DNA of 63,928 bases, the filler included, from Folioceros fuciformis (lineage: Eukaryota), in assembly GCA_049999805.1 (NCBI GenBank). It is 5 parts of 5 records of this genome, joined end to end, with 100 filler letters (N's around TTAATTAATTAA, not from the genome) between each part and the next. Parts side by side here need not be neighbours in the genome. Positions count along the whole stretch, not along the records: positions 14,481 to 38,676 come from JBNGIO010005831.1; 4 more parts are not named here. One strand, 5' to 3'. The notes beneath the pieces are model-generated. The model was not told the origin of the DNA. It saw only the letters and a program-made list of their open reading frames with translations, and made no database searches. Made by a program: the position numbers and the translations under genes. Shown piece after piece: positions 5,650-59,894 of this stretch (its first letter is position 1; every line of letters begins with the position of its first letter).

Positions 5650-8600
5650 TGTGGCAAGGTTAATGACACACACGCAACGATGGCCAGTCCGCGTGTGAAG
5701 CCACCGGGAATGAAGCTGCCTCCAACCATAGCCGGATGAGATAGTGGGAACCGATCCAGAAGGTAGCTTGAGTGACTTTGTAACGTGACAGATAGCCGGT
5801 GAAGGATAGCTGTTAGATAAAACGTGATTAGATATTTTAAAACCTAGATTAACAAGTAACTAGACAAGGATAAGTACATAGCTTAGGAAATAACTTTAAC
5901 TTCAACGGACAGTTAACGGTCCAGCAACCAAGGCTGTTGAACAGGGGACACCAGCTTCTTGGGTTGTCCCCGTCTCCTGTATATGTATCTAAATTCTTAG
6001 CAATGAAAAGCGTCCAATCTCCAAAGCGCTGCTTATACGGTTGTAGCATTCGTGGTATCAGAGCCACTGTCCTACGAATCTCGGGTCCAGGACCCCGAAT
6101 GTGGGATCGACGGACAAGATCGCCATGGCTAGGCTAAATCGTGTGATCGGAAGGAGGCCCCAACGATCATGGGGCAATAGGCGTAGCGAAGGGGACCAAT
6201 CCCGACCAAGATTGTAGTGCCAAGGGCTCCTAGGCTAGCACCCAGGCTGATTGTGTTGGAGGATGCGAGCGCAACCTTCAGCGCCACCAGACCAACCTCG
6301 CTGGGCAGGATTGAAAGCGCCTATAGCTGGGTAATCTGGGACAATCCACAACCAGACGGTTATCTGCAGCCTCAAGAGAGGGAACACCTGCAATCGGTGC
6401 GCAGGCCAGCCAACAACATGAGCGACTACATCGTCCCTTCGGAAGTGGACCGGCGAATCTCTAGTGGGAGTGAGGAAGACCACCCCCTTGAGGGAATTGG
6501 GGACAGGGTTTGCCGATGAGCACGCCATCTCACCAGCAACTCCCTTCATGGGTGCCTCGCTCCCATCCAGGCACGAGCCGAGGAGCCCGCTGAGACGGAG
6601 GGCACGAGGAGGCGATGTCGAGAGCTCCTACACATTCTCCAAGCCCAGCTGGAAGCGGAGGTTCACCCAGCGGAATGGATAGCCGAACCCGAGCCTGCGG
6701 TTGTGCTTGCCGAATACTGCTCCAAACCTGGACTGCGAAGGCGGGGGCGACCACGGAAACGGGGTGGAATTAACCTGAACGGTATACCAACACCTGCACC
6801 CACAGGAGGTCAAGACCCACCAGAGGGGGAGTTAGCCAGAGACTTAGCTCTTCAGCAGTTCGAAGGGAAGACCCACGGGGTGGAGCGGACCTGTGAGGAG
6901 TTGCGCAACTCTTTCTCATGTCAAAGCCAGCAACTGGAGAAGGTTGAGGAGTCCATCAGCAAACTCGAAGCCCAAGTGGGGGAGGGGCAGGCCCGACTGG
7001 GGAGGCAGCTAGAGGGTGTGCTCCAGATGCTGGAGCAGTCANNNNNNNNNNNNNNNNNNNNNNNNNNNNNNNNNNNNNNNNNNNNNNNNNNNNNNNNNNN
7101 NNNNNNNNNNNNNNNNNNNNNNNNNNNNNNNNNNNNNNNNNACCCCCTAAGGCCCCTACCACCCTCACCCTGCCACAAGACTTCCAGGCCCACAGAGTCA
7201 GCTGAGGGCATGCACCACTCGACCCCTTTGTCCATAGTGGCACCCCTGGGCCAAGCTTCAGAGGGTAGAAGGGAAGCAAGGGCCACGCCAGCAGTTCCCA
7301 GCAACCGTGACTTGAGCACAATAGGCGACGAGCTAAAGAAACTTGTCGTGGAACTCCTATTTGGCGAGAAGGACAACAAGGACATCAAGGCCATGGTCAT
7401 AAGATCGCTACAGGAGCTACATGGTGAAGGAGGAGAGGAGGAGACAAGGAGGAGAGGAGGAGACAAGGAGGAGAGGAGAAAGAGAGGTCACAATGAGTCG
7501 GTGAAGGAGGAGAGGAGGAGACAAGGAGGAGAGGAGAAAGAGAGGTCACACTCTCACAATGAGTCTCAATATGCAAGGGAGCTCAAGGGGGTATTTATAC
7601 CCTCTAGAAGAGCTCCCTAGGAAGCTTCACAAGAAGCGCACAGGAAGCTGCGCAAGAAGCTTCCTACGGATTAGCTTAAGCTAATCTAAACTAATGATAC
7701 TTAACTAGACACTAATCTTATAGTAAACACATTAGTCTAAGCACATTGGGCTTTAATAACCCTACAATGGTGAGGCGTTTACAGCTGATGAGGTACGAGC
7801 ACTAGGAGAACCAATGGGGGAAATCAAGTGGGGAGGTGCAAGAGGGTGAGGAGTACCAATTCAAACCCAGGCCCCAGCTTGACAAAGAACTCCACCGCAA
7901 AATCAAGACGACCACCTTTGACGGAGGAGCCAAGGATGCTCAAAGCGTCCATGACTGGTTAGACAAGATTGATAAATACCTTGCTGCTTCTGAAAAAGAT
8001 GACTTGCAGAAGATCCAGTTTTGTGTCATGTTGCTGGAGGGGTACGCTTACTGATGGTGGCGCCAACGGGAGAAGCAAGTCGACCTCGGCATGGAGTCCC
8101 CAGTTTACTCTTGGCCAGCCTTCCAACAGATCTTTCTTGAACAGTTCCTGCCAGTGAACCACTGCAAGGACCTGTATCAGCAATTCAGGAAGATTTTCCA
8201 ACAAGGCACTATTCAAGAGTACTGTGACAAGTTCTTACAACTTACACAAGACATGCCCAGGTTGGATGAGGAACAGAAGATCGAGAAGTTCATAGATGGG
8301 TTGAAGTTCGAGATGAGGGCAGATGGAAATCAAACAAACCCAACAACCCTGGTGGAGGCCATGAAGGCGGCCATCAACTATGGCACCAACAAGTATAAGC
8401 ATCTCTCCTCGACAACCCCTCCCAAGCCCAAGTGGAGCAAGTCTGCCAACGCATTAGAAAAGAAGCCAACCTTCAAAATTCTCACGGAAGAAGAGAATGA
8501 GGATTACAAGAAGGCCTGAAAATGCTTGACTTGCACAGCGTCCGATCATGGCTCCAAGTCTTGCCCTTTCAGGAAGGACTTCATAAATTGGTTGAAGGAG

Positions 8601-9394: not shown

Positions 9395-12300
9395 CTACCA
9401 TATGAGTGACTTATCTAGTGTCATGTAAGTACTACAATCCACCAACCCAAGCCCTTCTCGGTGGTAAGAGTGTTTAAAATTGGGCAAGGACTTGGTAAGT
9501 ACATCTGCTGTGTTGTCGTCAGTAGGTATATACTGAACCTTGACGATACCTCGCTCAGCAGCATCCCTTATATAGTGATGTTGTATCTCTATATGTTTGG
9601 TGCGTGCATGAAAGACGGGGTTAGCAACCAAAGCAATCGCGGACATGTTATCACAATGCAAGATAGTTGGCCCTTCTTGCTTCATACCCAAGTCTTCGCA
9701 AAGCTTCCTTTCCCATTCAGCCTCCTTTGTAGCTTCGGTAAGAGCCTTATACTCTCATTCTGTTGAAGATAAAGAGATGGCTGCTTGTTTTCTACAAGAC
9801 CAGTTAACTACGGAGGAGCTGGCTAGGAGACAAAAGGCTGATATGCTTTTGCGGGTATCAGCGTCTGAAGCCCAATCTGCATCTACATAGCAGGTGAGTT
9901 GGAGACGCTTCTTTCCGCTGGGTTTATAGCAAAGACCATAATTGGGGGTACCCTTGAGGTACCTCATGATACGCTTGAGGGCTACCCAGTGAACCTTTCC
10001 TGGGTTCTCAGAAAACTGAGCAACTGCATTTACAGTGTTGGAGATATCAGGCCTTGTTTGATTACTCAAGAACATAAGAGTACCTACGGCCATACGATAA
10101 GGGATATTCTCCATCTCTTTCTTGTCTTCTTCAGACTGTGGACATGAAGCAGAAGAGAGCTTAACACCAAAGGCACCAGGTGTGGTAGACGCCCTTGCAT
10201 TCTCCATGTTAAAACGTTTGAGCATACCGGCTACATATCTACCCTGGTGTACGTAAATAGCGCCTGTGCTATCTCTATGTACATGCATGCCAAGGATATA
10301 CTTGACCTTTCCTAGGTCCTTCATTTCGAATTCCCTGCTGAGGTCAGCCTTAATCTTGTTGACTAAGTCTACGTTGTTCCCTGGAATGACCAGGTCATCA
10401 ACATAGAGGGCGACTAGAACAAGTGAGCTATCCTTGCGCAACACATAGATATTAGTATCAGCTTCGCTTTGGACAAATCCTATTTTCTTAAGGTAAGAGT
10501 CCATCCTCTCATACCACAAGCGTGGGCTCTGCTTGAGTCCATAGATAGAGCGGTTGAGTTTACACACCTTGTGTGGGCATGCCTTGTCTTCGTAGCCCTC
10601 AGGTTGATCCATGTAAATCTCTTCCTGTAGATGACCATAGAGAAAGGCCGTGCACACATCTAGCTGATAAATTTCTAAGTTTAGTTCAGCACATAATGCA
10701 AGGAGCATCCTCACGGATGCAGCTTTAACTACGGGTGAGTAAACCTTATCGCCTTGATAATCAACTCCCTCTTTTTGACTATACCCCTTAGCCACTAATC
10801 TCGCTTTGTAGCGGATTCTAGGCTCAACTTCCTGGAACTTTGTCTTAAGAACCCATTTGCATTTGACGGTCGATCTACCCTTGGGCAAGCTAACAAGAGA
10901 CCAGGTATTGTTTTTGATTAATGAGTTATACTCATCATCGACGGCCAGCTTCCATTTAGCTGCCTCAGGTCTTGAGTAAGCCTCCTGTAAGGTTAAAGGA
11001 TCTCCCTCTGCAGTAGCAACACTTAAGGCATAGGGGAAATCCATAGAATCACCATAGGTTAGATGAGCTTGATTAAACTCAATGTCAAATGGTAGGTCCT
11101 TCCAAAGATGTCTAGGCTGACGCACACGAGTAGGATATCTACGCTCGGGAGCAGCTGGTGGCCTAGGAGGGGATGAAGGAGTGGCGAGTGCTGGAATAAC
11201 TTCATGGGGCACCACGTGATCATAATGAACATGTTCAACATCACCTTGTTCCATAGGAAGGTCCTCCACTACAGCGTCGTGGTATATCTCCATGTCCCCC
11301 TCTCGAGCAGGAACTAATGGCGCAGGAGCAGGCTGCATGTAAGGAACATGACCAGCAGCTGGCGGCAGTGGTCCTGCTAGAGGGATAGGAGCCACAGGAG
11401 GAGTAGGAGGAACACCATCAACGGGAAAGGAAAAGGGTTGAACATGGTGGTCAAGAGTGAGGTCACCAAGGGAGCGTGGAGTGCCGGAGCCAGAGGAAGC
11501 ACCATCGGGGATGCCAGGAGCAATCTCCAAGGATGTCCGGAGGGCAGGCACTATCTTGGCTTCATCAAAGGTGCCTGTGCGCGCATAGATTAGATTCCGA
11601 GTGGCCTTGTCCACGAGCTTGTAGGCTTTGCGATCATCACCATAGCCGACAAAAACTAGCTTCCGAGCACGAGCATCAAGCTTGTCACGGTGCTGTGAAG
11701 GGACAAAGGCATAGGCAGGGCAACCAAAAACACGAAGATGTGAGAGTAGAGGCTTGCTCCCGTGCCAGCACTCGTAGGGTGTACGGCCTGAAACCGCCTT
11801 AGTAAGGACCCTATTCTTAATGTATGCCGCCGTAGACACAGCCTCAGCCCAATAGGACTTGGGCAGCTGAGACTGAGTCAGCATGGCACGAGCCATGGAC
11901 ATCAAATCGCCGTTAGCCTTCTCGGCCACGCCATTCTGCTTGGAGGTGTAAGGTACAGTGAACTGGCGCAAGACACCACGCTCCTCGCAGAAGGCACGAA
12001 ACTGAGGGTTGTTGAGCTCTCCCGCATTGTCGGATCGAATACATCGAAGTTTACGACCAGTCTGTAACTCGGCCATAGCAACAAAGGGTGAGAACACATT
12101 AAAAGAGTCACTCTTAAGGCGGATGGGAAACGCAAACGTATATCGACTGAAGTCATCAACGACAGTCATAAAGTGGTTAGCCCCACCTAAAGACGCAACA
12201 GGGAGAGGACCACAGAGGTCTACGTGGACCAAGTCAAGAGGCGCAGTGGTCCGACTAGCAGGAAGAGAAGGATAAGGAGAACTTCGCTGTTTAGCAAGCA

Positions 12301-14023
12301 CACAAGCCTCGCAAAGAGGAGGTGTTGACGAAATTCGGGGAAGCTTATCATGATACAAGTCCTGCTGAGTCGTGGCCAGGAGCCGGGCTGGATTAAGATG
12401 TCCAAGCCGACAATGCCAAAGGAGAGCGTCACCTGGGTGGGATCTCCTTGAAGGCTGGTCTCCATGTGAGGGAACCGCCAGGGAAGTAGCTGCCGGAAGC
12501 ACGGGCTGACCTGTGAAAACATACAAGTCATGACGCGGACGTCCTCTAGCAACAACCACACGAGGGTTAGAAGACCGATATAGAAGACAATCGCCTGAAC
12601 CAAACTCTAGGCGAAAGGAGCCGTCCTTGACAAGCTGTCGAACAGAGATGAGATTCTTGGCCATCTGGGGAACATGTAACACATCAGTAAGCATCATGTG
12701 GGATCCATCAGCCAGAGTGAAGGCGACGGAGCCAATCCCCGCAATGGAGAGGCCAGAATCATCTCCAAGAAGTACGAAGCGCTGAGTGTCAGCAGCCGCC
12801 TCATACGTGGTAAACATGGTCTTGTGACTACAGATGTGCGTGGACGCAGCAGAATCAAGCAGCCAGGACTGCCTGTACTCAAATGCCACAAGACACATGG
12901 TGAGAGCAATTCCAGGTTGAGAAGGATTCTTGGCCTTAGTCGAGACAGTAGCCGAGTTGGCAGTACGAGGCTCTCGCTTGGCCTCACCAGCTTGCTTCTT
13001 CCTGCACTCCCTTTCCCAATGACCGGGCGTTTGGCACCAATTGCACGTGCCTTGTCGCTTCGTGGTCTTGGAAGAGGAGCCAGCCGAGGGAGCAGGCTTG
13101 TCGGAACCTTGTGAATTGTTCCTGTGTTTAGGTTTTGTAGAATTCTTACGCTGTTGTTGACGTCCTTTGGCGACGAACATGACCCGGTCTCCTCCGTGTT
13201 TTGAAGTCCCGACATTGAACCTGGCAGCCTCCTCTTGAAGGAGAGCTCCAGCTATCTCGGACACGGTGATGTTGGGTACCATACCCGACTGCACAGCCTG
13301 ATGTGCATTTCTCACCGTTTGGTTTTGTGAGGAGACAAAGGTCTGGTAGCTAGCAGGGAGGCTAGCCAATAACTGAACAGCCGCTTCAAATTCTGTGATG
13401 GTTGTGCCTAGAGCAGCAAGCTGAGCCCGTAGATATCTAAACTTGCTAACGTGTTGAGCAACGCTATCATTATGACCCATACGCAGAGAGTAAAACTCTA
13501 GACGTACTGTGACCAACGTCATAACGTTAGTAGATTGATAGATATCAGTGATTTGCTTCCAAGCTTCTGCTGATGTGGACGCACCATCCGTGTGGTGTAA
13601 TGTAACCTCGTCAAGGCCAGAGATCAACATCTGCATGGCTTGACGATCTTGACGAACCCAAGCGTCAAGGGCAACCGGATTACCGATGGGCTTGGGAAAA
13701 GTTCCTTCAACAATTGGGAGAAGATCCCTTGTGTTGAGGGCAGTCTTCATGCGCTTAGACCACACTTCAAACTTCGTGCCGTTAAATCTATCCTTTTCCT
13801 TAAAATCAGTGTTGATGTTAACGATATTGAAGTAAGGTTGGAGGCCTACTGTTGGTTGAGGTGGAATAGGGCCGGCTGGACCGCTAGGAGGTGAGGTGGG
13901 TGGTGGACTGCCCATCGGCACGCCCAAAGGTGGTGACGGGGGTCTGGATCCTTGCCGTGATGGTGACCCAAAGGGCCCCGCACCTGGACCAAACCCGGAC
14001 CCGGAGCTAGAAGCGCCTGCCAT
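9395..14023 (-). CDS. Ty1/copia Gag-Pol polyprotein (gag, CCHC, protease, GAG-pre-integrase, integrase, RT, RNase H) with one in-frame TGA at 9755-9757
   Basis: CNWCQTPGHWEREC; WLLDSAAS; LWHCRLGH...CEAC; VHVDLCGP, RSDNAGE, QNGVAE; KARLVAKG, LYVDD; DADWA, STE*EY, CDN, RTKHI, ADVLTK, in copia domain order. Confidence 0.95.
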
Positions 14024-14182: not shown

Positions 14183-14380
14183 CTAAGGGAGTGGAGAAGG
14201 TTCAATAGGTTGCTCGCTAACTTCAGTAGAGGGATCTCTCACTTCAGCACTTTTGGGGCTTGACTCAAGGCCTTGAAACTCTTGAAGTTGAGTTGCCAAG
14301 TAAAGGAGGTCTTCGTTGGCGTTGGCCACTGATTGCCAAAGAGTGAGTAGTCTATCACGTCGAGCCGGGGGATCAAGTGA
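14183..14380 (-). CDS. 3' end of a putative accessory ORF upstream of copia A gag (runs into gap)
   Basis: Open frame SLDPPARRDRLLTLWQSVANANEDLLYLATQLQEFQGLESSPKSAEVRDPSTEVSEQPIEPSPLP* ending ~160 nt before the gag ATG; short, so could be chance. Confidence 0.4.
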   Translation of the reverse strand, partial: SLDPPARRDRLLTLWQSVANANEDLLYLATQLQEFQGLESSPKSAEVRDPSTEVSEQPIEPSPLP

Positions 14381-14480
14381 NNNNNNNNNNNNNNNNNNNN
14401 NNNNNNNNNNNNNNNNNNNNNNNNTTAATTAATTAANNNNNNNNNNNNNNNNNNNNNNNNNNNNNNNNNNNNNNNNNNNN

Positions 14481-16240
14481 GTCACTCTCCATCATTTGTT
14501 TAATCAATGTTCATTATACAAAAACTCGCTTCCGCGATTTATAGCATACAAAAGTCTGATATGATGGAGGAAGTGTGAGCAAAAGGTGAGCCACAGCGTC
14601 CTCCTCTGAAATAGTTGAATTCAGTTGAGCAAGTCGAGATCGAAGTTGTCGAAACTTGCTAGTGTGGGCAGCCACACTATCCCCTTCGCGCATTTTCAAG
14701 GTATAAAATTCATGCTGAATTGTACATTTAGTCATCATTGTCTTAACAGCATATGTGTTGACAAGCTGATTCCAAATCTGGTGTGCCTTTGTAAGATATT
14801 CCACATCTGGAATCAAGACTTCGTCAAGCCAGTAACCAAAATGGCAACCGCAATCTCATTTATTGTGTTCCATTTGTCTAAATCAGCCAGTATGACTTGT
14901 GGGGAGGCCGTTCCAGCAGCAGGGAGCAAAGGCTCCTTATAGCTACCGTCAACAACAGTCCACACTCCTCGTGCACGCAAGGTAGTCTGCATTCGAACTC
15001 TCCATACTTCGAACTTGGTGCCGTTAAACCTGTCTTGGCCTTTCAAATCTGTTGTAAATGATGGAGCTGTAGACATACTGACTATTTGTTGATGCTGTGC
15101 AGGGGGTATAAGTGGAGAAAGAAGAGATGGTGGGCTAGAGGAAGGACTACCCAACTTACGTTGACGACGAAGGTAAGGAGACAAGGGGAAATTCAACAGG
15201 TCTCTTGTAGACATACAAAAATAAGGCTGATAAAGGCAGTTAAGGTTGAGAAAGCATGTTTAGGGTTTGATTGAACTTTCAGCAGAAAAAGTTTAACTTA
15301 AACTACTGACTTCTTTTCTAGAGCACGATTGGAGTCAGGTGAAGCGGTTAATAACTGCCTGTGAAACGTCAGCGGAAGCAAAAAGGCCAAAAGGCCATAG
15401 AATTCATAGGGCATTTGAATGCAATGATGCCTACACTAGAAAAGATCACAAATGTTAGTTCACTCTGATCGCCCCTCATCAGAGGGCCGCAGGATCATGT
15501 TTAAAATCTGTAATTGTCTAGAGATTTTACTAATTTCAAATGAAAATTGAGAAATAATTTTATGAATTTTAAAATCTGTGCAATCCAGACGTTTAGAGAA
15601 TGCCTCTTGTCGCTGAACAACGGCATTCACAGTACCTTCTATAACTTGTACCTCTGATTCAGAATGTGAAGGATCAATTGCAGATGTGCTTGCAGGCTCA
15701 GTACATGGTGACGGTGCAGAAGTTGGCCTCTTAACAAATGGCTTATTTGAGCATGGAGCCTTTTTAAACAAACGTCCACAATTGCAGCATGGGAGAGTAG
15801 TGCCAATTGTAGCAGGTCTGTAATATAAATTATCACGGCCTTTGTTGCGCGGATCATTTTCAGGAATTAGAAAGTCACGCTCTGACTTGGTTTCTGCATC
15901 GGTCCAAGGGATGCTGGTTGGAATGCCCGAGTGTAGATTGAAGAAGGCTGGTCTAGAGAAGGTCTTAGAAAATCCTCCTCGGCCACCAAGTCCACAATTT
16001 GATCTGTTTCTCGGCATTGCAACCTATAGCATCATCAGCAGCATTTCCGCTCTGATACCATAAGAAAAATAAGAAATGCTAGAAAAGTGTCAAGGCAGCT
16101 TGACATTATGTGTGTGAGAGAGCCAGCAAGCTTGAAATCATAAAATGGATTCAGTTATTGAAATAAACAAAAGTGTAATTTATATAGTCTAAACCTAATA
16201 CGCCTAGGTTAAACATATATACTAAAACGTATATTTTTCA
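14481..16240 (-). mobile_element. Ty1/copia 5' fragment (copia B): short LTR ~16061-16240, PBS 16049-16060, accessory ORF, frameshifted gag; inserted into Athila-like element 1
   Basis: GCTCTGATACCA (PBS reverse complement); gag text DRFNGTKFEVWRVRM, FYTLKMREGDSVAAH, LLTLPPSY. Confidence 0.85.
15460..16017 (-). CDS. Accessory ORF (185 aa) between PBS and gag of copia B; unknown function
   Basis: ATG 32 nt from PBS edge; intact ORF; basic N-terminus MPRNRS, CCNC motif, C-terminal heptad-like helix. Confidence 0.6.
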   Translation of the reverse strand: MPRNRSNCGLGGRGGFSKTFSRPAFFNLHSGIPTSIPWTDAETKSERDFLIPENDPRNKGRDNLYYRPATIGTTLPCCNCGRLFKKAPCSNKPFVKRPTSAPSPCTEPASTSAIDPSHSESEVQVIEGTVNAVVQRQEAFSKRLDCTDFKIHKIISQFSFEISKISRQLQILNMILRPSDEGRSE

Positions 16241-16412
16241 TCCTTGATTTCATCAACCGGCACCCATTCACGCTCCACCTTCTTCTGGCTCCCGGGGGTC
16301 CTCCTCCCTCATTCCCCATTCCCTGAATAGGTCTTTAGAGGTAAATCTGGTGATCCCCGGCTCATCTCCAGCAAGCCCTTCAGCCCTTGGATCATAGCCC
16401 CCTTCCCTCATC

Positions 16413-19231
16413 TCACCTTCCTTCACACCTCCCTTGGCATGGAGGATTTTTTTTCTGGTCAGCAACTTCCCCTTCCACATTTGCTGTTTCAACCCCCGCC
16501 ATGTTGCAGTCCAGGGTGATCCCAAAACACTCCACCCGGTTCAAGGTATAAGGGATATCCCTCCGGTAGTCCTCCTCTTCATTTGTCCATGAGATGTGAG
16601 AAAAGGGGAATTTATCCTCCCCCTCCTCCCCTTCCAAATCAGTTGTGTCCCCCACGGACATGTACCCTTCGGTGTCCATTGGGGTCTCACCAAGGTAGAC
16701 ATCCCGGCTCCAAGTCAAACAAATCCTACCCTCCCTAGTCTTGGGATCCCATTCAGGTGGTTTGAAAGCCACCTCCTTCCTTCCCCACGATAGCCTGCAC
16801 CTTGATCCATACAGCCACGTCCTGCCCTGCAAGATGTCGTAGCCCGGCGCCTTGTGCTGAATGACCACAAAATCTAGAAGATAGGGGATGGTCCCTATGG
16901 TCGTGGTCACCCCTCTCAGCTCTCCCACCGGCTGCATTCTAGACATATCGGCCAACCTCAAGACCTTGGTTGTGTGCTCGATCTCCAATCCAAGTTTCTT
17001 GGCTGTTCCTCCGTCATAATATTCACCCCTGAACTTGTATCCAGTGGCACCCTCTTAATCACGAAGTGTGCGATCTCCACCTGCAATTCAGCCGGTCCTT
17101 GGTCCACCATGGACACCATGTTGACCGTGGGGGCCGACACCCTTGGTCCTGACTTAGGCAGCCTCTTCCTCCTCTTGGGCTGGGCCTCCTGCAACACCTT
17201 CCGGACCTGCTGTCGATACTTAGGGTTATCCTTCAAGAGCTGGCCAAAGGTGACAACAAATTGCTGGTCCATGATGGCTCCAGCCAAATCAAACGGCTTC
17301 TGGACAGCCCCATTAGTCCCTTTGGTCACTGCTGCCACCTCCCTAAGTAGCAGACTTGCAGCCACGGGTGCTGACTCCTTTGCTAGCCTATCCAGCTCCT
17401 CCTAGCTCATGTCCAGCACTTCTCCCCTCACATCTGGAGGAAATTCCAGGTTTTCCCCCCTTGCTGGAGCTGCTCCCTCTCCAGCCCTTGATTTTTCCTC
17501 TTTAGGGGTCTGCCCTTCTTGGTCTCCCTCCTCTTGACCTGATTCCTCCCCATCTGGAGTACTCTTCTCCTCCTCCTTCGATCCTGCAGCTGATTCCACT
17601 TCCTTCCCTTTCTTCTTGGCAGCCCGTTGCCTCCCTCTTCTCTTCCTACTACGGGTACATGCAGCCATGGCTGTATCTTCCCCATAATACCCCTCCTTGG
17701 TGCTGTCCAGCCCCTCCAGCCCCCTAAGGACCTTGGCCTCAGCCTCCTCCCAAACAGCCATGAGGGCATCTTCTATGTGCATGGTTGTTGCAGTCCCTTG
17801 AGGTGCTGCTTGCTGCACCCCCATCACCGCCGGCTGAGCTATTCTCACACTCTTCCTAGGGTTCTGGCAAAGCACACTGCCCGCCACGTGCCCCTGCTGT
17901 TTGCAGTCCTGGCACAACCTATCAATATCCCCATTGGCCTGCCTAGTTGCTGATGGACAGTTGTTAGCATAGTGCCCAAATCCACGACAATTGTGGCATT
18001 GGACAACCCCCCCTGGTTGCCCAGCCACTCTCCCCACCTGGTTGCTGCGACCACCCATGCCCATAGGATTTCGCAGAATCGACGGATGGGCTGTCTTGGG
18101 GTATTGCTGACCTTGGGAAAATTCCTGGATTTGGTAGGAGTCCTCCACCGGCCACTCCTCCTCCTCCCCCTCATAGGCCAGCAACTGCACCTTGGCCCCT
18201 TGGCAATGGGTCTTGGTGTGGCCTTGCTCACCACAAGTGGAACAAAACAAGTTAGCCTTACCACTAGCTGCAGCCCTCCTCCTCTCATGCTCCTTGACAG
18301 CATGGAGGTGGAACTTCTCAAATTTACTCAGCATTTCCTCCATCTTGGATTCTTGCTGTTCCACCTTCTTGGCTGTAGCCTTAGCCTCTTTCTTGACCTG
18401 CTCCACCTCCCTCTTAGCATGGGCCACCTCCTGCTTGGCCTTCTTGGCCTTCCTCTTTTTCCTTGCCATCTCCAGCTCCTTCTTCTTCCTTCTCCTCCTA
18501 GCAGCCTCATCCTCCAAGGACTCCTCATCCGAGCTGTCCTCCGCTGAAGATGTGGAGGCCCTTGCTGATCCTCCTCAAGAGTCACTGTCCTCGGAGGATG
18601 ATTCCTCCGAGGAGGATGAGTCCCTCTTCTTCTTCCCCTTCCTAGGCCTGTTCTTCCTCTTGTCCTTCTCCTTCCCTCTCTCCTTCTCCTTGGATTTCCC
18701 TTTGCCCCAAGGATGAGACTCCTCGTAATTGAGAGCTGCCCTTATAGCCCTGTCCACATCCTTTTCTGCGAACAACTTCACATGGCCCCCCATCCTCGAT
18801 CCTAGGCCCCCAGCAAACCACCTAATGGCCTGTAAATCTGAATGAGGTCCACAGCGATCCCGCAGGCTGTGGAACCTCTCCACATAGGCCTGCAAGGTCT
18901 CCTTCCTCCTCCTTCTTAAGGCCTCCAGCTTGGACAGCACGTAGCCCTCTACGTCTATCTCCCTGAATCGCTCACAAAAGGCCCTCTTCAGCAGATCAAA
19001 AGTTGCTGGAAATGTGCCGGCCTTGAGGTACTCCCTCCTATACCACTTGGCAGGCCCTCCACGCAACACACTATAGAACAATTGGATGCGTTGTGCATCC
19101 GCTGATTCCTGGTTAGCAAGGGTCAGCAGCTCAAACCTCTCCACAAATTCATCCGGGTCCTCATACCCCTTCTTCTCCCTATACACGGGGTACGGCTGCT
19201 TGGTGGACATTGAAATAGCTAGTGTCGCCAT
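16413..19231 (-). pseudogene. Gypsy gag (three zinc knuckles) plus aspartic protease; two in-frame stops and a frameshift
   Basis: YEDPDEFVERFE...LRGGPAKWY; CSTCGEQGHTKTHC, CHNCRGFGHYANNC, CQDCKQQGHVAGSVLC; LDTSSGVNIM and YDILQGRTWL. Stops at 18575 and 17402 are in frame; frameshift near 16990. Confidence 0.85.
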
Positions 19232-20304
19232 GGTGCTTGCACTCCCTCCTGCAGTTGCAGCTCCAGCCCTTGGAATTTGGCTGATGTTACAGAATCCTTC
19301 AGCTCCTACACTCCTAAGTACCTGCTAGTTGCTTGCCCCTCTCCTCCTCCTTGCTGGTGTATGGCCTGATTGCACCCGCCTCGGCCCCCTCTCTACTACT
19401 CTTTGCTCACGCTCCAATGCTTGCTGCTGCCTCCTTGCTTCAGCTTGAGTCCCCCCTTCACCGCTGGAGTTGAAATCTTCAGCACCTATACAGGGCATCC
19501 ATCAGCCTTGCCACACTCCCTTGTACAGTCCCCTATCCAAGTCTGCCCTCTCCAAGCCTTGACAGCAATATCACTCCCCGGCAACGGCGCCAAATGTGGA
19601 GTGGTTTCTTCCTCCCAAGAACCACCAAGGGGCCACACTTCCCCTTATTATCGCTGCAGTCTTGTGGTTCGCTCCCAAGGGAGTGAACTAGTGTCAAGGT
19701 CAGATAGAACTCCCTAATCTCACCCTAGCTATCAGCCGGTTCTTAGTCCTGACCACGCTACAGCAAAAAGGTCAGAATTTGTAGCCCTATCTTCAGCTCA
19801 ATATACCAATCCCATGCTCCAGCACTTCAATCATTCAACCCTTCTCTTCTTCACTTCAGTCCTTCACTCCCACTTCAGCATTTCATCTACCACTTCAGCA
19901 CTTCACTTCAACTCACTCCAGGAATTTAGGACACAACAACGTCTCGCCTTGCAGCCTTCAAGACAAAGGTATGAGGTCTAGGACTGGATAGCCTTTTTGG
20001 CTCACGGCCCTGCCACCTCACCTCAACTAGCCTGCAAAATGACCAGCCATTGCGGATCCGGCCACATGGATCTCGGCAGTCTAGGGATCCATCACGTCCC
20101 CCTAATGGCAAGGAGGATCAAGCCCTTGGTTAGTCTCACACTGGACCAACCACTGTAATCCGGTAGTCTACACACAAGGTCAAGGGAAATCAGACCGTAA
20201 GACTGCCCCCTCCTCAATGGCAGGTCTGCCCTCTTATACTGCCTTCACCTAACCCTTCATCTTTGTCTACTAGGGTTAACCTCAATCAACCACCTAACAG
20301 TCTC

Positions 20305-38676: not shown

Positions 38677-39229
38677 NNNNNNNNNNNNNNNNNNNNNNNN
38701 NNNNNNNNNNNNNNNNNNNNTTAATTAATTAANNNNNNNNNNNNNNNNNNNNNNNNNNNNNNNNNNNNNNNNNNNNGACCAAACCTATACCCACTCTTAC
38801 AACCAAACCCACTATTTCCTGGTCAATTAACCCAATTAGCACAAAGAAAAATAGGAAAAATGACCAGAAAATCAAGGAAAATTAGGGAAAATAAGTTGAA
38901 AAAGAAAACCAAACCATACCACTATTAACCCTTTTTCAACCAAAACAAACTACTACCCCAAACTTTGGAGGTTCACACTCCCCTTCATTCTGATCAGGCG
39001 TGGGACAACCCTTGCTATCCAGCAATCGACTAGACCTCNNNNNNNNNNNNNNNNNNNNNNNNNNNNNNNNNNNNNNNNNNNNNNNNNNNNNNNNNNNNNN
39101 NNNNNNNNNNNNNNNNNNNNNNNNNNNNNNNNNNNNNNAGGAAAAATAAGTTGAAAAAGAAAACCAAACCATACCACTATTAACCCTTTTTCAACCAAAA
39201 CAGACTACTACCCCAAACTTTGGAGGTTC

Positions 39230-45413: not shown

Positions 45414-45922
45414 CTACAGTCTGCACTCTTGCATAAACCAAACCGGTATGATGTCGGATTCATGCGCACAAAACATCTTGTGAGTCTTCCTGAGCGTACT
45501 CGCCGCCACGTCGCATGCCTTGGCAATGATTTCGAGTGAGGTGGCTTGGTCATTTGAAATCCTACACACCATGTAGATCATGGCGGCGGCGATGGACGTT
45601 GGGGAGCTCGCGGGGTTGAGTTTTTCAACGGCGCTCAAAGACTCAACCACGGCTCTTGCACTCGTCTTAGGCAGTTGGAGCTTGCAGCAAAACCGCGGTG
45701 CAAAATCCCTAGGCCGCAGAGCTTTGGACGTGCGCGCTGGATTTCCTCGCATGCACGGCTTGTCATGTGCATGCACGTCGCTCGATTCCAGGAGGCCCAC
45801 CAACTTTTTGATGTCCCCCCGGACAAGAGCGTAATTGCGGGCACCCAAGAAGTTCTCGTAGATGTCTTGGGCTGACCAAGGAGCGCGTTCTTCTCGACAA
45901 GCCACAAATGTGGCAGCAGCCA
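45414..45922 (-). pseudogene. Intronless, 5'-truncated TFIIB-related sequence (cyclin-fold repeats)
   Basis: AAATFVACREE..P, DFAPRFCCKLQL, SPTSIAAAMIYM, IAKACDVAASTLRK, IIPVWF match the TFIIB core repeats; N-terminus replaced by a repeat. Confidence 0.85.
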
Positions 45923-46625
45923 CGCTCTCTTCTCTCACACACTCTCTTCTTCAACACCTCTATTCAGAACACAACAAATGGTTCAGGGAATAAGGGAAGA
46001 AATCTCTCCTTCCACTCCGCGCAGCTGGCGGATTCGTCCCCCTCACCACTCACTACGGACCACAGTCGACCGTTCAAGGAATAAGGGAAGGAGAAGCTCT
46101 CCCTCCACTCCAGCAGCTGGTGGATTCGTCCCCCTCACTTTCCATTGCAGAACACAGCTGACCATTCAGGGGATAAGGGAAGGAGATGCTCCTTCCACTC
46201 TACTCAACTTGCAGATTCATCCCCCTCACTTTCAACTGTGGAGCAAAAGTTCTCAACCACCCCTAGGAGCGTCTCGCACTCATTGCCCACCCAAACATCT
46301 CCAGTCCAGCCATGGATAGCGAGGGGATCTCAACCACAAGGAGTCTCCAACATTTGCTAATAAGAGAGGCACTAACATGCCCCTTTGTACAGAGTTTCCA
46401 AGAGCGGGAGCCACAACCCGCTATAAAGCCTAGTTCTAAAAATAGCAGGAGCCACAACCCGCTATAAAGTCTAGTTCTAAAAATAGTCAACATAAAAAAA
46501 ATATACCTTTAATGGGAGGTGGCACCAGATCAAAGATAGCATTTTGCCAAATCTTATTTAAATCAACTTTAAAAAAATATGCTGAATGGTAGGCGCCACC
46601 AGGTCAAGATAGCATCTTGACAAAT
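45923..46625 (+). repeat. Dispersed repeat copy 1 (direct repeat of 56336-57075)
   Basis: Long near-identical stretch; internal motifs ggattcgtccccctcac and ggaataagggaag recur. Confidence 0.9.
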
Positions 46626-50537: not shown

Positions 50538-50943
50538 TACGAATAAAACGTGGTAAATAGGATGTTTGTGAACGTTACAAATAAACCCAAATAAAGATGA
50601 AGATGAATAATGGTAAACCTTGTTGAATGAGATGAATATTGGTAAATGGATAAGGACAAGAATGAGGAGCATGCGTCCCGCCATAGCGACCTATGAAGTG
50701 GACATTCGCGTGTGCTGGGCTGGTGCTGTATAAGCCTGAAAACCAGGAGTATAAGCGCTTGTATGTATTCAGTGTTAGCCTAAACTAACAGTATTCATGC
50801 AGCAGCTGACCTAACCTCGCATGCAGCAGCTGACCTAACCTCGTGCCTGTGGGGAGCGTGTACAGTTATCTGTGTCCGCAAGCAACTTGTGGAGACTCTT
50901 CATCAACAACTAGGGAACCTTCGGGTTTCCGCCCCCACCAACA
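50420..50943. mobile_element. LTR-like insertion overlapping the PPR 3' end
   Basis: TGTAG...CAACA termini, TATA-like motifs and an internal ~25-bp tandem duplication; no matching target-site duplication found. Confidence 0.35.
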
Positions 50944-50955
50944 CCAGATGAGTCA

Positions 50956-53900
50956 CTAGCTGCTATCCATATATCTTGTGTAGCCTTCCAGGCCCAAACC
51001 TGAAAGATGCTTGTAATGCTTATGCTTTACCAGGCCCTTAGTCAGCACATCTGCCACATTCTCATCTGTATGTACATATCCCACTTTAACAGCATCTCGT
51101 TCCACCACATCTCTAATGTAGTGGTGTTGGATTTCAATGTCTTTAGTGCGGGCGTGGAATCTGGGATTTGCTACTAGGGCTAGGACTGACATGTTGTCAC
51201 ACAATATTGAGGTAGGTCCTTCTTGTGCTTGATCCAGGTCATGTAGGAAGCTCCTCTCCCACTATGCTTCTTTAGATGCATCTGTCAGTGATTTATATTC
51301 CGCCTCTGTGGAAGACAGGGCTATGGAAGATTGTTTCTTACACGACCAATTGACTGCAGCAGAGGCGAGCAAAAAACAATAAGTGGATAAGCTCTTCCTC
51401 GAATCACTATCAGATGCCCAGTCGGCATCAGTGAAGCCTGTCAAGGTAAGCTTTTGTTTTCCGCTCCCTCTGTAGCAGAGCCCATAGCAATGAGTGCCTT
51501 TGAGATATCTGAAGATTCTCTTAACAGCTGACCAGTGCATTCTGCCAGGGTTTTCCAGGAACTGAGATACTGTGCTAACGGAATACTGAATATCTGGACG
51601 TGTCCAGTTAGCAACAAATATCAGGCTCCCAACAGCATGCCTATAAGGTACATGCTGCATATCGCGGGACTCTTCCTCAGACTGTGGGCAATGAAGACTA
51701 GTGAGTTTCATCCCTGTGGAGTAGGGTGTTGTAGCAGGCCTAGCCTCATCCAACTTAAATTTGCGCAAAATATCATTTATATATTTGTGCTGATGTATGA
51801 TGAGCAGGCCTTCGGATCTGACCCTAATAATCTGTACTCCTAGGCAATATTTCAGCTCCCCAATGTCTTTCATGTCAAACTTTGTGCTGAGCATGTGCTT
51901 TACCTCTGCTAACAAAGTCTGGCTGTTAGTTGCGAGGATCACATCATCCACATACAGGGCAAGCACGACAAAATCGGTTCCTCTGCTCAGCCTGTATACA
52001 TTGGAATCTGCTGTGCTCTGCACAAAAGAGATGCTAAGGAGGTAGACATGCATGGTAATATACCATACCCTCCTGCTCTGCTTAAGTCCATAAATGCACT
52101 TTAATAATTTTAGGACTTTCTTAGGGTTTTCTGGATCCTGATAGCCCTCTGGTTGGTACATGTACAGGTCCTCATCAAGATCCCCATACAAGAATGCAGT
52201 GCATACGTCCATTTGCTGGAGATCAAGATCAAGCTCTGCAGCGAGGGCCAACAGAACGCGAATGGACTGAGAACGGACAACAGGTGAAAAAGTTTCCTGA
52301 TAGTCCAGACCCTCCACTTGGGTAAAGCCCCTAGCCACAAGCCTGGCTTTGTATCGGGCAATTTCCCCTTTGGCATTCAGCTTCAATTTGAAAACCCATT
52401 TGCACGAGATGGCTTTACGCCCTGGTGGTAGGTCAACAAGTGTCCAAGTCTTGTTTATAAGAAGAGACTGATACTCCTCCTCCACTGCTGCCTGCCATTT
52501 GGAGCGATCAGGGCCATCAAGTGCTGCTTGGTAGGAAGAAGGTTCCTCTGCAGGAAGAATATCAACAGTGGCTCCGTATACAGCAGCAGCAGTGCGAAAA
52601 TCCATAGACGTGTAACGGGGCTCCTGCCATTGATCAGGAGGTGGCCTGTGACGTGTTGACCAACGAGGGGCAACAGGGGCAGGCTCACCAATTGGATCTG
52701 GATAGAAGCCAAGATCAGCCCGAAGATCTTCATCATCCATAGAACTGGGAACATCATCAACTGCAACAAGATCGGCAGGCCCATCAGTAGGATCCAGGTC
52801 AGTAATCTCCTCAGAAGCAGGGTCTTCAAGATCCGAGGGAGGATCGTAATGAAGGATGTCACCCTGGTCTACTGCAGGGGCAACTGGAGCATGTGCTTTA
52901 CCCCTGTTGCCCCTTGTCGGGGCAACCGAAGGATCGGGAGCTGCTGGCGCTGGAGGAACAACTGCTAGGGGTTGCGTGTCATTAGCCGGGAAGGTGACAG
53001 TATCCGGTGCCTCCTCACCAAAATCTCCCTCTGAAGATGAAGCCTGCTGGGGGTCGGTTGTAACAGGATTGATAGCCTCTAGGAAGGTAACACTCCATGC
53101 AAGGACAATGTCTGTCGTATCAGGGTCATACAGCTTATAGGCCTTCACATTTTCACTGTAGCCAATAAAGATCAGTCTACGAGCTCGATTCTCTAACTTC
53201 TTTCTCTTTTGTGCAGGGATATATGCAAAAGCCTTGGAGCCGAAAATACGCAAGTGAAGCAGACTGGGTTTTCTATGCCAGTATACTTCAAATGGTGTCT
53301 TCCCTTTAACAGAACTGGTCAGCACTCGATTCAAGATGTATGTGGCAGTGACCACTGCCTCTGCCCAGTATTCCTGAGGTAGACCTGCCTAGAGCAGCAT
53401 GCTCCTAGTCATCCCTAGCAAGGTCTGGTTTTTGCGCTCAGCTACACCATTCTGCTGTTGGGTATAAGGAACAATTAGCTGCCGCTGGATACCCTGCTCA
53501 GATAAGTACTCATCGAATTCATGGTTAACAAATTCAGTGCCATTATCGCTGCGAAGGATTTTCAGCGTACAACCGGACTGACGTTGTGCTGTGGGTAACC
53601 AGTCCTTAAAGTAACTAATGGTGTCACTTTTCAGGTGCATGGGGAAGGTCCAAGAGTACCGGCTAAAGTCATCTGTCAACGTCAGGTAATAGAGGACTCC
53701 TCCTAAGGAGGGTGTATGGATTTTTCCTGAAATATCTGCATGTACAAGCTCTAAAACTCGTGTGGCTCTATGTGCAATTTTCGGGAAAGGAAGCTCCTTC
53801 TGTTTTGCAAGAATACATGCCTCACATACGGGCAACTCTTTAAAACAGCTAGGTAAGGGTTCCCTATGACAGCCGAGGTTGGACATGTCAATCAGTTTTT

Positions 53901-56219
53901 TGCGGTTAGCATGCCCTAGGCGAGCATGCCACAAAGATGCAAGCTGACTAGCATTCATGTTGACCGTGTACGCTGCATGGCTTGTGGACGCAGGAGAACA
54001 CTTCTGCTCTAGCCTGTACAGGTCATGATCGAGGACACCTCTAAATGCGCAGATGTTAGGTGAAGATTTTCTATAGAAGCAACAGGCATCATCAACCATA
54101 CGCATCTCATACATGAAAGACAGAGAAAATGTGTTCAAGAGTTTTATGCCACACAGCACACTTGGTCATGATATTAGTGACCTGATAGGTTTTCTCAAGC
54201 TGATTCCAAATCTCAATGCCCTTGGTCAGGTACTCAACATCAGGAACAAGAAGGGTATCCAAGCCATTGATAATGACAGCAACAACAACTTCATTGTGGG
54301 CTGTCCACTTATCTATATCAACTTGGGCACCGGTTTGAGAGTTAGGCTCTGGAAAACTTCCACCCACAACACTCCAGACTCCCCTAGCTATCAGGAGAGC
54401 TTTCATGCGTACCTTCCACACATGGTACAGTTTCCCATTAAACCTATCCTTCTCTTTCAATTCTGATGTGAAAGAGGGACCTGTAGCCATGGTTTGTGTA
54501 CTTGTGACAGGTACTATTGGCAGAAAATTCCAGAAATTGGATATATTAGCAGCCTGCAGGTCCTCTTCCCCCTTCGACGAGGTAGAACTATGATCTGATG
54601 GATCTAAGACTGCACCTAGGCTGATGTCAGATGCACTATGTACACTGCCAGCTAAAGACTCGTCCAAGCTGAGGTCAGATGCACTATGTGCACTTTCGGT
54701 ATTGGACATGTGTAAACCAGCTAAGTCCCTTTCAAAACTATGGTTCAAGAGGAAAAATAGCGAGGTTAGTTATGCTTTGATGTAATTGTCCCTAGAAGAT
54801 GCTCATGTGATACTAACGATGCGTTTCCAGGGGGTTAGTTGGGGGAGACAACCTGAGAGGGGATGGATACATAGTGTATTCAATCCTACACAGGCTAGCT
54901 CCCTCATCCAACTTCCTGGCTGCGTGAAAAGGGTGTAAGTGTGAGAAGGGACACAACTTTTCAAAAAGTATCGTTTGAGTTCTTTACGTAGGGTTTCTAA
55001 TCGACTTTTCTTGGTTTTATGAACAGACATGTCAGTTGACGGACCAATCTCATGCAAAGAGACGCAACCAAGCCAAGGGTCAGCAACACAATTGTGACGC
55101 TTCAGATCAACGCCAAAAGCCACTGTTGATCCTGTACGCCGTTTCGCATCTCCAGCGCTCCCCGCCAGCGGAAGCAGGGTCACAGGAAGGAGTCTCCGCT
55201 CGCACGCAAGAACTCTGTGGAGAATCCTTGACTAAGATCCATCGCACGCATCATTCCAGCAATCTGTGAGATGTTTCTATCAATTCTGGAAATTTGTGTG
55301 TCGATGTAGACTTGCAGACGAGCAACACCGTCTCTCAAGATGTGCTGATTGAACAGGAGTTTTTCAAGGGAAGTCCCAACAGGAACCTCAACTGAAATTT
55401 GCTTTTCTGCAGCCAATTTCTCTACTTGTTTCTTGTATGAAGTAGATTTTTCTACAGCAATTGCGCCGTCTTCTGCAGATGTTTCTCCCTTCAGCCACCT
55501 AAGCGTCCTCTTGTAATTTGGATGATTGCATACTTCTCCAAGGGCTCGCAACTCCCAATCAACAATAGGACCAAATTCAGGGGTGTTAGGAGAAGAGGCT
55601 GAAAGTGTTGACTCCTCAGCACAATTGACCAGTGGTTGAGAACGAGGATCAGGCTGGTTCCTAGCAATGCACCGGGCCCGGTAGAGAGAATCTACTCCTG
55701 AGGTTCTCAACTGCTGTAGCCTAATCGCACGCGCTCTGGAACTTGCTGTGCCTGAGTTTCTAGCAACCCACTGTCGTAGCCGTACGTCGGGGTAGTTGGC
55801 CTCGTACAGATCCAAAACGCTAGCAGCAGGGACTCGACTTGAGTTTTGTAGCCTTCTCTATTGACGTCGATCTGCACGGGATCTACCCNNNNNNNNNNNN
55901 NNNNNNNNNNNNNNNNNNNNNNNNNNNNNNNNNNNNNNNNNNNNNNNNNNNNNNNNNNNNNNNNNNNNNNNNNNNNNNNNNNNNNNNNGGATCTACCCCG
56001 GCGAGGCATTATGTCTTGAGAAAAGTAGAGAGCATTTGGAGCTCTGATACCATGTAAAATATGCGGAGAGCAGTTTGGCTCGACAAAGCTTAATGTCAAA
56101 TAATGAAAAATGATTGCAAAATTGTATGTGTGTATTGTTCAAATACTAAACCCTAAAAACGGTTCACGTATGTTTAACCTAAAAAAACCTTTATACTTAA
56201 TGTTGGCTTTATTTCCAAT
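50956..56219 (-). mobile_element. Ty1/copia element (copia C): LTR 56053-~56219, PBS 56041-56052, accessory ORF, gag with internal deletion (knuckle and protease lost), integrase, RT, RNase H with TAG stops
   Basis: GCTCTGATACCA; KEKDRFNG; LWHARLGH..CEAC; RSDNGTEF; KARLVARG; LYVDD; DADWA; RTKDIEIQHHYIR. Confidence 0.92.
55180..56009 (-). CDS. Accessory ORF (~240 aa) between PBS and gag of copia C, with one TAG if the gap is closed
   Basis: GGATCTACCC occurs on both sides of the N gap; merging gives MPRRGRSRADRRQ*RRLQNSSRVPAASVLDLYEANYPD... in frame with the 211-aa ORF; C-terminal heptads. Confidence 0.6.
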
Positions 56220-57075
56220 AAGCAGCGGGTGGATTCGTCCCCCTCTCCTCAGCTACGGGCCACAATTAATCCTCACTCTTCTCCTCCTCACTCACTCACT
56301 CCTTCATCCACACTTTAGCTCCTCGTCTTCTCACGCGCTCTCTTCTCTCACACACTCTCTTCTTCAACACCTCGATTCAGAACACAGCAAATGGTTCAGG
56401 GAATAAGGGAAGAAATCTCTCCTTCCACTCCGCGCAGCTGGCGGATTCGTCCCCCTCACCACTCACTACGGACCACAGTCGACCGTTCAAGGAATAAGGG
56501 AAGGAGAAGCTCTCCCTCCACTCCAGCAGCTGGTGGATTCGTCCCCCTCACTTTCCACTGCATAACACATATGGCCGTTCAAGGAATAAGGGAAGGAGAT
56601 GCTCCTTCCACTCTGCGCAGCTTTTAGATTCGTCCCCCTCACTTTCAGCTGTGGAGCAAAAGTTCTCCACCACCCCTAGGAGCATCTCGCACTCACTGCC
56701 CACCCATGCATCTCTAATCCAGCCATGGACAGCGAAGGGGATCTCAATTGGGAGAAGTCTTCAACATTTGCTAATCATAGAGGCACCAACAGGCCCCTTT
56801 GTACAAAGTTTCCAAGAGCAGGAGCCACAACCGCTATAAAGTCTAGTTCTAAAAACAATCAACTTTAAAAAGTGTGCCCTTAATGGCAAGCGGCACCAGG
56901 TCAAGATAGCATCTAGCCAAATCTCATCTAAATCAACTTTAAAAAAGGTGCCCTTAATGGCAGGCATCTCTAGGTCAAGATAGCATCTTGCCAAATCTTA
57001 TCTAAATCAACTTTAAAAAAGGTGCCCTTAATGGCAGGCGACATCAGGTCAAGATAGCGACTTGCCAAATCTTAT
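56220..57075 (+). repeat. Dispersed repeat copy 2, ending in ~72-bp tandem units
   Basis: Matches 45923-46625; units aaatcaactttaaaaaaggtgcccttaatggcagg...ggtcaagatagcatc x3. Confidence 0.9.
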
Positions 57076-59437: not shown

Positions 59438-59894
59438 NNNNNNNNNNNNNNNNNNNNNNNNNNNNNNNNNNNNNNNNNNNNTTAATTAATTAANNNNNNN
59501 NNNNNNNNNNNNNNNNNNNNNNNNNNNNNNNNNNNNNCAATCAATAAGGATGTTACTTGCTTGCCTCCCCGCAATTGTTATCACTGCTTGGTAGCTTCGT
59601 ATCATGCCCCACCTTCTTTCTTGTAATTCCTACTTGAACTTCTTGAACTTGAGGGTTTGTACTTCTACTTAACCAACTTCTAAATTCCTATTCTACCTTT
59701 GATTTGGCTAACTAACTTCCTACTCCACCTCTATTGTTTAAAAGATGGCTAGTTTGAGAACCCTACCTCCCCTTTGAGCTTGAGGGTTTGTTTCACCTAA
59801 CCAACTTCCTATTCATCTAATTCCTTAAAGGATGCCCAAATTGACAACCCTACCTCCCCACCCTCATACCTTCCTTCTACGTGCATTCTAATGC

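Follow-up and report, generated by a model that had tools for sequence, protein, structure and literature searches.

A candidate accessory reading frame between the primer-binding site and gag in Ty1/copia retrotransposons of Folioceros fuciformis

Among the long terminal repeat (LTR) retrotransposons, Ty1/copia elements commonly pass for the plainest, with a single gag-pol frame to which SIRE adds a 3' env-like open reading frame (ORF). Can such an element also carry a gene ahead of gag? The question is raised by a stretch of 63,928 nucleotides of the Folioceros fuciformis assembly GCA_049999805.1 (hereafter the window), in which record JBNGIO010005831.1 contributes the 5' fragment of a Ty1/copia element (element B), lying on the minus strand. 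An earlier note on this DNA (the original prediction), from which the strand was absent, had described an intact ORF of 185 aa that starts 32 nt from the primer-binding site (PBS) edge and lies ahead of gag. Our reading of the sequence bears this out: the ATG of the frame, named ORF0-B, does lie at that distance. The window also holds a second copia element with such a frame (element A) and probably a third with an ORF before gag (element C; coordinates in Table 1). On balance, and with a confidence only just sufficient to state a preference, we favour reading ORF0 as a 5' accessory ORF (aORF) that is maintained, lineage-specific and fast-evolving, the copia counterpart of the 5' aORF of Tekay/Retrosat-2. 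Its carriers would be a group of Ty1/copia retrotransposons with short LTRs, resident in a land plant.

An open frame ahead of gag in copia elements

ORF0 is a coding-like frame, more than chance would give. Firstly, no sense frame in the 834-nt interval between PBS and gag of element B stays open for longer than 187 codons, a length reached by one of 2000 dinucleotide-preserving shuffles, and the ORF0-B span contains no stop in its own frame against 4–22 in the other five. Secondly, its base composition follows the codon. The guanine plus cytosine (GC) fraction at the three codon positions of ORF0-B is 0.459/0.497/0.319 (p 0.0012), in the same direction as in gag, and this periodicity is not seen in the spacer that separates ORF0-B from gag (p 0.43), in the corresponding spacer of element A (p 0.30) or in the LTR of element B (p 0.37). 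Purines occupy codon position 1 at a frequency of 0.55–0.58 in the ORF0 frames and 0.56 in the gag-pol of element C; in the spacers the value is 0.43–0.47. Thirdly, the arrangement recurs. In element A, the ATG of ORF0 lies exactly 32 nt from the PBS edge, an offset identical to that of ORF0-B, and both predicted proteins begin with MPR followed by an Arg-rich segment. This recurrence at a fixed place in two diverged elements supports the view of ORF0 as a maintained accessory ORF.

The ORF0-A frame is broken by a 100-N gap (55889-55988), after which come an in-frame TAG (55860-55858) and 225 open codons. These 225 codons are matched by one of 2000 dinucleotide-preserving shuffles of their own interval, the other five frames hold 7–15 stops, and the codon-position periodicity of GC is again present (p 0.033). 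The same 10-mer is found on both sides of the gap; if the contig ends overlap at this 10-mer, the ATG and the 225 codons would fall into one frame, with the TAG at codon 14. Elements A and B are old, separate lineages, since their Gag proteins share 46% identity (BLASTP over 97 aa, E 1.5e-28) and their LTRs are so weakly similar that they barely align. In element C, an open tail at the start of the contig stops 169 nt before the gag ATG, with no stop in its own frame against 1–8 in the others and GC fractions of 0.672/0.443/0.361 by codon position (p 0.0017). This tail may represent the C-terminal end of an ORF0-C; taken by itself it is weak evidence, though it fits the pattern of A and B. The frame of element B is thus no one-off, given a second copia with the same offset and a similar N-terminus and a third with an open tail before gag.

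The carriers are Ty1/copia elements as judged from their gag type, the domain order of A and C, and the PBS, in agreement with the original prediction that a copia element has a sense ORF in the interval from PBS to gag. A copia-type gag is present in all three. In element B it is split by a frame break: the first part (133 aa) matches DUF4219 (E 7.3e-6) and Retrotran_gag_2 (E 1.5e-4), both just below the Pfam cut-offs, and the second part (102 aa, in another frame) matches Retrotran_gag_2 with E 3e-22 and 79.3 bits, against a cut-off of 27. At the break, near 14825, contigs differ in length by one letter, at a depth of 26.4 of 45.6 in one DNA run of the sample (X1) and 38.2 of 65.4 in another (X2). 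The gag domain scores are 38.9 and 32.9 bits in element A and 102.7 bits in element C, and Gag of B and C are 39% identical (BLASTP, E 9e-16). Pfam finds Retrotran_gag_2, DUF4219, gag_pre-integrs, rve, SH3_retrovirus and RVT_2 in element A, whose gag is cut after ~200 aa and lacks the zinc knuckle and protease. The integrase (INT) domains precede RVT_2, the reverse transcriptase (RT) domain, in A (rve, SH3, RVT_2) and in C, and the copy of B ends inside gag.

Element B has both an LTR and a PBS for the initiator tRNA-Met (tRNA-iMet). The PBS is an exact match, and we take the sequence TGGTATCAGAGC to be a tRNA-iMet PBS on the strength of established knowledge. Allowing at most one mismatch, the window contains three matches to it where 0.38 are expected, and none of 100 shuffles gave three. 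The complete tRNA-Met PBS argues against Osser and Bryco, lineages whose PBS is of the half-tRNA-Met type (PMC6317226, in its passage on these lineages). The inner edge of the LTR of element B is set where it abuts the PBS and its outer edge where X1 and X2 contigs continue unlike the window past 16241; a TATA-like motif lies near 16185. The copy ends, or else diverges, at 14546, where contigs from this sample have loose ends and continue differently. The pol and 3' LTR of element B lie outside the window because the contig stops at the linker 14381-14480, and its target-site duplication is outside as well.

The predicted protein has the features claimed for it. It starts with MPRNRS, the N-terminal part is rich in Arg and Gly and includes GGRGGF, an RGG-like stretch, CCNC occupies residues 77–80, and the middle is rich in Ser and Pro. 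AlphaFold2, run without an alignment, places a helix at residues 122–176 (nt 15490-15654), with a block confidence score (pLDDT) of up to 93, in line with the helical C-terminus originally proposed, and leaves residues 1–120 without structure. The model of ORF0-A is of low confidence throughout and also has a long C-terminal helix (163–224). Neither model shows a compact fold, and the CCNC of ORF0-B has no counterpart in ORF0-A. A long C-terminal helix predicted in both proteins, at low confidence in A, would speak for a maintained accessory protein.

Copies, variants and relatives of ORF0

Contigs from three DNA runs of one sample (X1, X2 and X3) were placed on positions 14530-16260 at an identity of at least 80%. 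This 1.7-kb stretch received 73 (X1), 80 (X2) and 214 (X3) contigs, counting all identity classes, and all 30 of its bins were covered; ORF0 and gag are covered to a similar contig depth. One 567-nt contig spans 15410-15976 with 11–12 differences and no gap. Another, of 622 nt and only ~81% alike (101 differences), carries two compensating pairs of one-letter gaps inside ORF0, so that there is no net frameshift over 517 nt, as judged from its gaps alone. In X3, C>T is found at 73 places and G>A at 110 relative to the window over 14530-16260, an excess as in bisulfite-treated DNA; this run could yield the methylation state of the ORF0-B family.

Several results weigh against a maintained protein. 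All 12 of the listed ORF0 variants are non-synonymous, where the expected share is 0.77; in gag, three of the six classified listed variants are synonymous. Variant density is similar in ORF0 and spacer: the listed variants backed by X1 or X2 comprise 10 over the 558 nt of the former and 5 over the 245 nt of the latter. These figures rest on 40 of 388 variant places, selected by support and hence a small and biased sample; eight gag variants seen only in X3 were left out, and two of the 12 ORF0 variants rest largely on X3. Since GC is low at codon position 3 of ORF0, few mutable C or G are available at third positions. The listed variants thus give no sign of purifying selection on ORF0 residues, and the sample is inadequate as a test of it. 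Both visible copies of ORF0, in A and B, lie in degenerate elements, and the frame of ORF0-A is probably interrupted by a TAG at codon 14.

The searches for relatives weigh on the same side. Between ORF0-A and ORF0-B, BLASTP finds nothing significant (best E 3.7), and a weak, collinear Smith-Waterman alignment of residues 37–180 of B with 29–207 of A is only marginal, 83 of 2000 shuffles scoring as high. The tail of element C matches neither, with 734 and 558 of 2000 shuffles scoring as high in the two comparisons. ORF0-B gave no match in a HMMER search of 1.84 billion representatives. For ORF0-B and ORF0-A alike, word-indexed protein searches at near and longer lengths returned no relative, Pfam no significant family (best E 0.08–0.18) and the sequences of the PDB no significant match (best E 0.49). 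Alongside these, matches of the two proteins in PHROGs were non-significant (E 0.016–0.067), the ESM Atlas and metagenome contigs gave nothing, and tblastn of the three ORF0 frames against the window returned only self matches. At the RNA level, Rfam reported a single sub-threshold match over 14500-16300, to a snoRNA in the LTR (E 0.43), and no contig of a further run that we guessed to be RNA (X4) was placed on the 1.7-kb stretch.

The most serious alternative is accordingly that the frames have no function, B being open through recent amplification from one master and A and C being chance frames in an expanded leader. The lack of detectable homology among A, B and C or to anything elsewhere, the wholly non-synonymous variants at a spacer-like density and the degenerate state of the copies all fit it. 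It would nevertheless require two independent frames, each of a length that one shuffle in 2000 reaches, to share an offset and an N-terminal motif, and it leaves unaccounted for both a three-base GC periodicity that is present in three frames and missing from spacers and LTR, and a copy of ~81% likeness without net frameshift. We therefore regard it as unlikely, while giving it real weight. The accessory gene proposed in the original prediction stands in so far as the ORF is recurrent, family-wide and coding-like; purifying selection on its residues is not seen.

Known accessory frames and possible expression of ORF0

The nearest parallel to ORF0 is the 5' aORF of Tekay/Retrosat-2, which is likewise a sense frame between PBS and gag, an orphan without Pfam domains, and fast to diverge. 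Their predicted architectures also appear alike, with a basic motif, an alpha-helix and long disorder. The publications cited in this section are used for their passages on such extra ORFs. The Tekay aORF is reported to have a nuclear localization signal, alpha-coils and 92.5% disorder, to occur in 500 of 523 sunflower elements and to be common to Retrosat-2, RIRE3/8, Sb7 and the sunflower Tekay group 2 (PMC11728184). ORF0 of Retrosat-2 evolves faster than its ORF1 (Ka 0.257 vs 0.078; PMC3485330), and the function of the aORF is given as unknown in those passages (PMC11728184, PMC3485330). The carriers differ. Those of Tekay are Ty3/gypsy chromoviruses with RT before INT, a chromodomain, long LTRs and an aORF of ~400 aa, whereas those of ORF0 are Ty1/copia elements with an LTR of ~180 nt and an ORF of 185 to ~240 aa; their backbone is copia, not that of a chromovirus, so that they would work like the Tekay carriers without belonging to that family.

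Ogre elements offer a second parallel, with a 1527-bp ORF upstream of GAG (PMC2533021) that often carries a plant mobile domain (PMC6317226). As with ORF0, this ORF1 is a sense frame upstream of gag and characteristic of its lineage; unlike ORF0, in which no Pfam domain is found, it is much longer and belongs to gypsy elements of giant size whose PBS is for tRNA-Arg and whose pol contains an intron. The statement in the original prediction that 5' extra ORFs are a trait of Ogre-type gypsy thus holds for Ogre and is too narrow, since Tekay has them too (PMC11728184, PMC3485330).

Within copia, the SIRE/Sirevirus env-like ORF resembles ORF0 in being accessory and fast-evolving (PMC6317226, PMC4093653, PMC7264820), and differs in being longer and in lying 3' of pol, where ORF0 lies 5' of gag. 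ORF0 itself is not an extra forward ORF of the SIRE kind, which lies between pol and the 3' LTR: it sits between PBS and gag. The env-like ORF of SIRE is often said to carry a transmembrane segment. The REXdb survey (Neumann et al. 2019, PMC6317226) recognizes a class of 5' forward extra ORFs (eORF-5'F) among plant LTR retrotransposons and counts extra ORFs of at least 250 codons in 582 Ty1/copia elements, in 45 unrelated groups; for copia, the passages cited single out only the SIRE eORF-3'F. With such a threshold, an ORF0 of 185 codons would escape the survey, as would its whole class any survey limited to extra ORFs of at least 250 codons (PMC6317226). The SIRE 3' env-like ORF is the only copia accessory ORF in the literature covered (PMC6317226, PMC4093653, PMC7264820), and that literature, taken without Fig. 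4 and the supplements of PMC6317226, which possibly list cases, describes no conserved 5' sense ORF in Ty1/copia. If a 5' accessory cistron is indeed kept in diverged copia elements, the 5' aORF phenomenon would extend beyond the gypsy elements Tekay and Ogre, implying either that small, basic, disordered proteins were gained convergently or that the elements share an old module. Such a cistron would also pose a concrete problem of expression, namely how gag-pol is translated behind an ORF of 185–240 codons.

The layout suggests where the difficulty would lie. Because ORF0 is downstream of the PBS, it is on the genomic RNA. There it would be the first long cistron, 32 nt past the PBS and directly after an upstream ORF (uORF) of 6–8 codons. 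The ORF0 ATGs of A and B have a purine at –3 and the gag ATGs of both a pyrimidine. Scanning ribosomes on the full-length RNA would then yield mainly the ORF0 product, with very little Gag, the start of gag-pol being placed 245–470 nt beyond ORF0, behind 4–6 more ATGs and in a weak context (A and B). With scanning expected to favour ORF0, the expression of gag-pol probably depends on a spliced RNA, on one started internally or on internal initiation. The non-standard expression of gag implied by the original prediction is thus what the sequence of element B would lead one to expect, with ORF0 first, a better start context and four ATGs in the spacer. As an accessory protein, ORF0 would be made, may bind RNA through its basic N-terminus and may self-associate through its helix. 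A shunt-type structure of the leader was considered and rejected: the RNA fold of the 868 nt from PBS to gag has a z of –1.24, a stability that 3 of 20 shuffles match.

That uORFs stand directly before ORF0 in both A and B raises another explanation, in which translation itself matters in cis: together with the uORF, it would govern the flow of ribosomes, the protection of the RNA or the choice between translated and packaged RNA. Such a role would suit residues that evolve very fast in a frame that persists. The recurrence of the MPR and Arg-rich N-terminus and of the long C-terminal helix speaks against it, as do the excess of purines at codon position 1, a trait of proteins under selection, and the RNA fold just mentioned, which gives no stable structure over the interval. 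We consider a role purely in cis improbable.

A bolder version of the protein reading makes ORF0 a Rev/Tat-like regulator of its own RNA, acting on export, translation or packaging, or else a suppressor of silencing, with gag-pol made from a second RNA. The full-length RNA would first encode an Arg-rich, helix-tailed regulator, a layout as in complex retroviruses, and an arms race with silencing would explain the runaway divergence of ORF0 amino acids. We put this forward as speculation, with a low chance of being right.

ORF0 could also be one or more upstream exons, spliced to gag to give an N-terminally extended Gag. A pyrimidine tract with an AG lies 13 nt upstream of the gag ATG in element B and 36 nt upstream in element A, in a spacer of 470 nt that is closed and holds six ATGs, and Gag itself has a long, disordered N-terminus in all three elements that cannot be aligned among them. 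Reading the sequence, we found no splice donor common to the positions of A and B; moreover, the AGs lie in the untranslated part before the first gag ATG, and stops follow ORF0 in all frames. This makes fusion to Gag very unlikely. Lastly, a host-gene fragment transduced by one element is scarcely credible: captures of host sequences by LTR retrotransposons have been described (PMC7264820, in the passage on capture), but the ORF0 region belongs to a multi-copy family as deep as gag, which excludes the single-copy captured gene named beforehand as the refuting case, and it recurs, in an identical position, in two lineages that have diverged, with no host or other homologue in our searches.

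Feature coordinates and neighbouring elements

The window is a chain of contigs, with four linkers of 44 N, TTAATTAATTAA and 44 N, and with further 100-N runs and one 10-N run. Contigs on either side of a linker are not necessarily genomic neighbours; the gag-pol that follows element B is assigned to a different element (C) on a different contig because a linker separates the two.

Table 1. Features of the copia elements A, B and C and linkers, in window coordinates
Feature	Position	Strand	Description
LTR of element B (5')	16061..16241	-	~180 nt, TG start, TA end
PBS of element B	16049..16060	-	TGGTATCAGAGC; exact match to the complement of the initiator tRNA-Met 3' end
uORF of element B	16024..16044	-	6 codons and stop; stop 6 nt ahead of ORF0 ATG
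ORF0-B	15460..16017	-	ATG 16017, stop 15462-15460; 185 codons without internal stop
Spacer ORF0-B/gag	15215..15459	-	245 nt; closed in each of the three sense frames; 4 ATGs
gag of element B	14546..15214	-	copia type; N-terminal ~220 residues; frame break near 14825
Open tail of element C	14193..14380	-	61 codons and stop, at contig start
gag-pol of element C	9755..14023	-	1422 aa, intact; gag, zinc knuckle, protease barrel, INT, RT
PBS of element A	56041..56052	-	match to the PBS sequence
uORF of element A	56009-56035	-	8 codons; stop overlapping ORF0 ATG
ORF0-A	55180..56009	-	ATG 56009, MPRRGRS, stop 55182-55180
gag-INT-RT of element A	51262..54709	-	copia order; degenerate, several frame breaks
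Linkers	14381-14480, 38677-38776, 59438-59537, 61795-61894		N/TTAATTAATTAA

Around element A, two repeats of ~640 nt (45900-46560 and 56330-56960), ~95% alike over their best 300 nt and built of internal units of ~90 nt, enclose the element and also, on the opposite strand (48054-50537, +), an intact pentatricopeptide repeat (PPR) protein of 827 aa that has an E motif. As a clean LTR pair of A these repeats were rejected, for they stop ~280 nt before its PBS, and a short 3' LTR right behind its pol was rejected as well, no direct repeat being present within 50400-56400. The arrangement may reflect a long LTR with tandem repeats, two elements or a misassembly.

Telo-box-like motifs are found in the spacer of element B, ~45 nt upstream of gag (AAACCCTAA, 15255-15270, -), and in both the spacer (AAACCCTAC, 54985-55000, -) and the LTR (TTTAGGGTTTAG, 56140-56160, -) of element A; none was seen before gag of element C. 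Those in the spacers are unexplained and were not counted as evidence of an internal promoter. The gag-pol of element C shifts frame near its end, the C-terminus of RNase H lying in another frame (9395-9685; region 9395-9755, -).

Two Ty3/gypsy elements complete the picture. Element B sits in or beside one of them (16260-19324, -), which has a Retrotrans_gag domain at 18575-19231, a triple zinc-knuckle ORF at 17402-18469 and an ORF at 16413-16946 that is protease-like by eye only. The other (6053-8519, +) has at 6053-6064 the same tRNA-iMet PBS as the copia elements, then a stop-to-stop frame of 366 codons (6520-7620, including a 100-N gap) with a coiled-coil-like stretch and, downstream of it, a Retrotrans_gag/Ty3_capsid domain at 8055-8516; the 366-codon frame may be either a 5' aORF of the Tekay type or a long N-terminus of gag.

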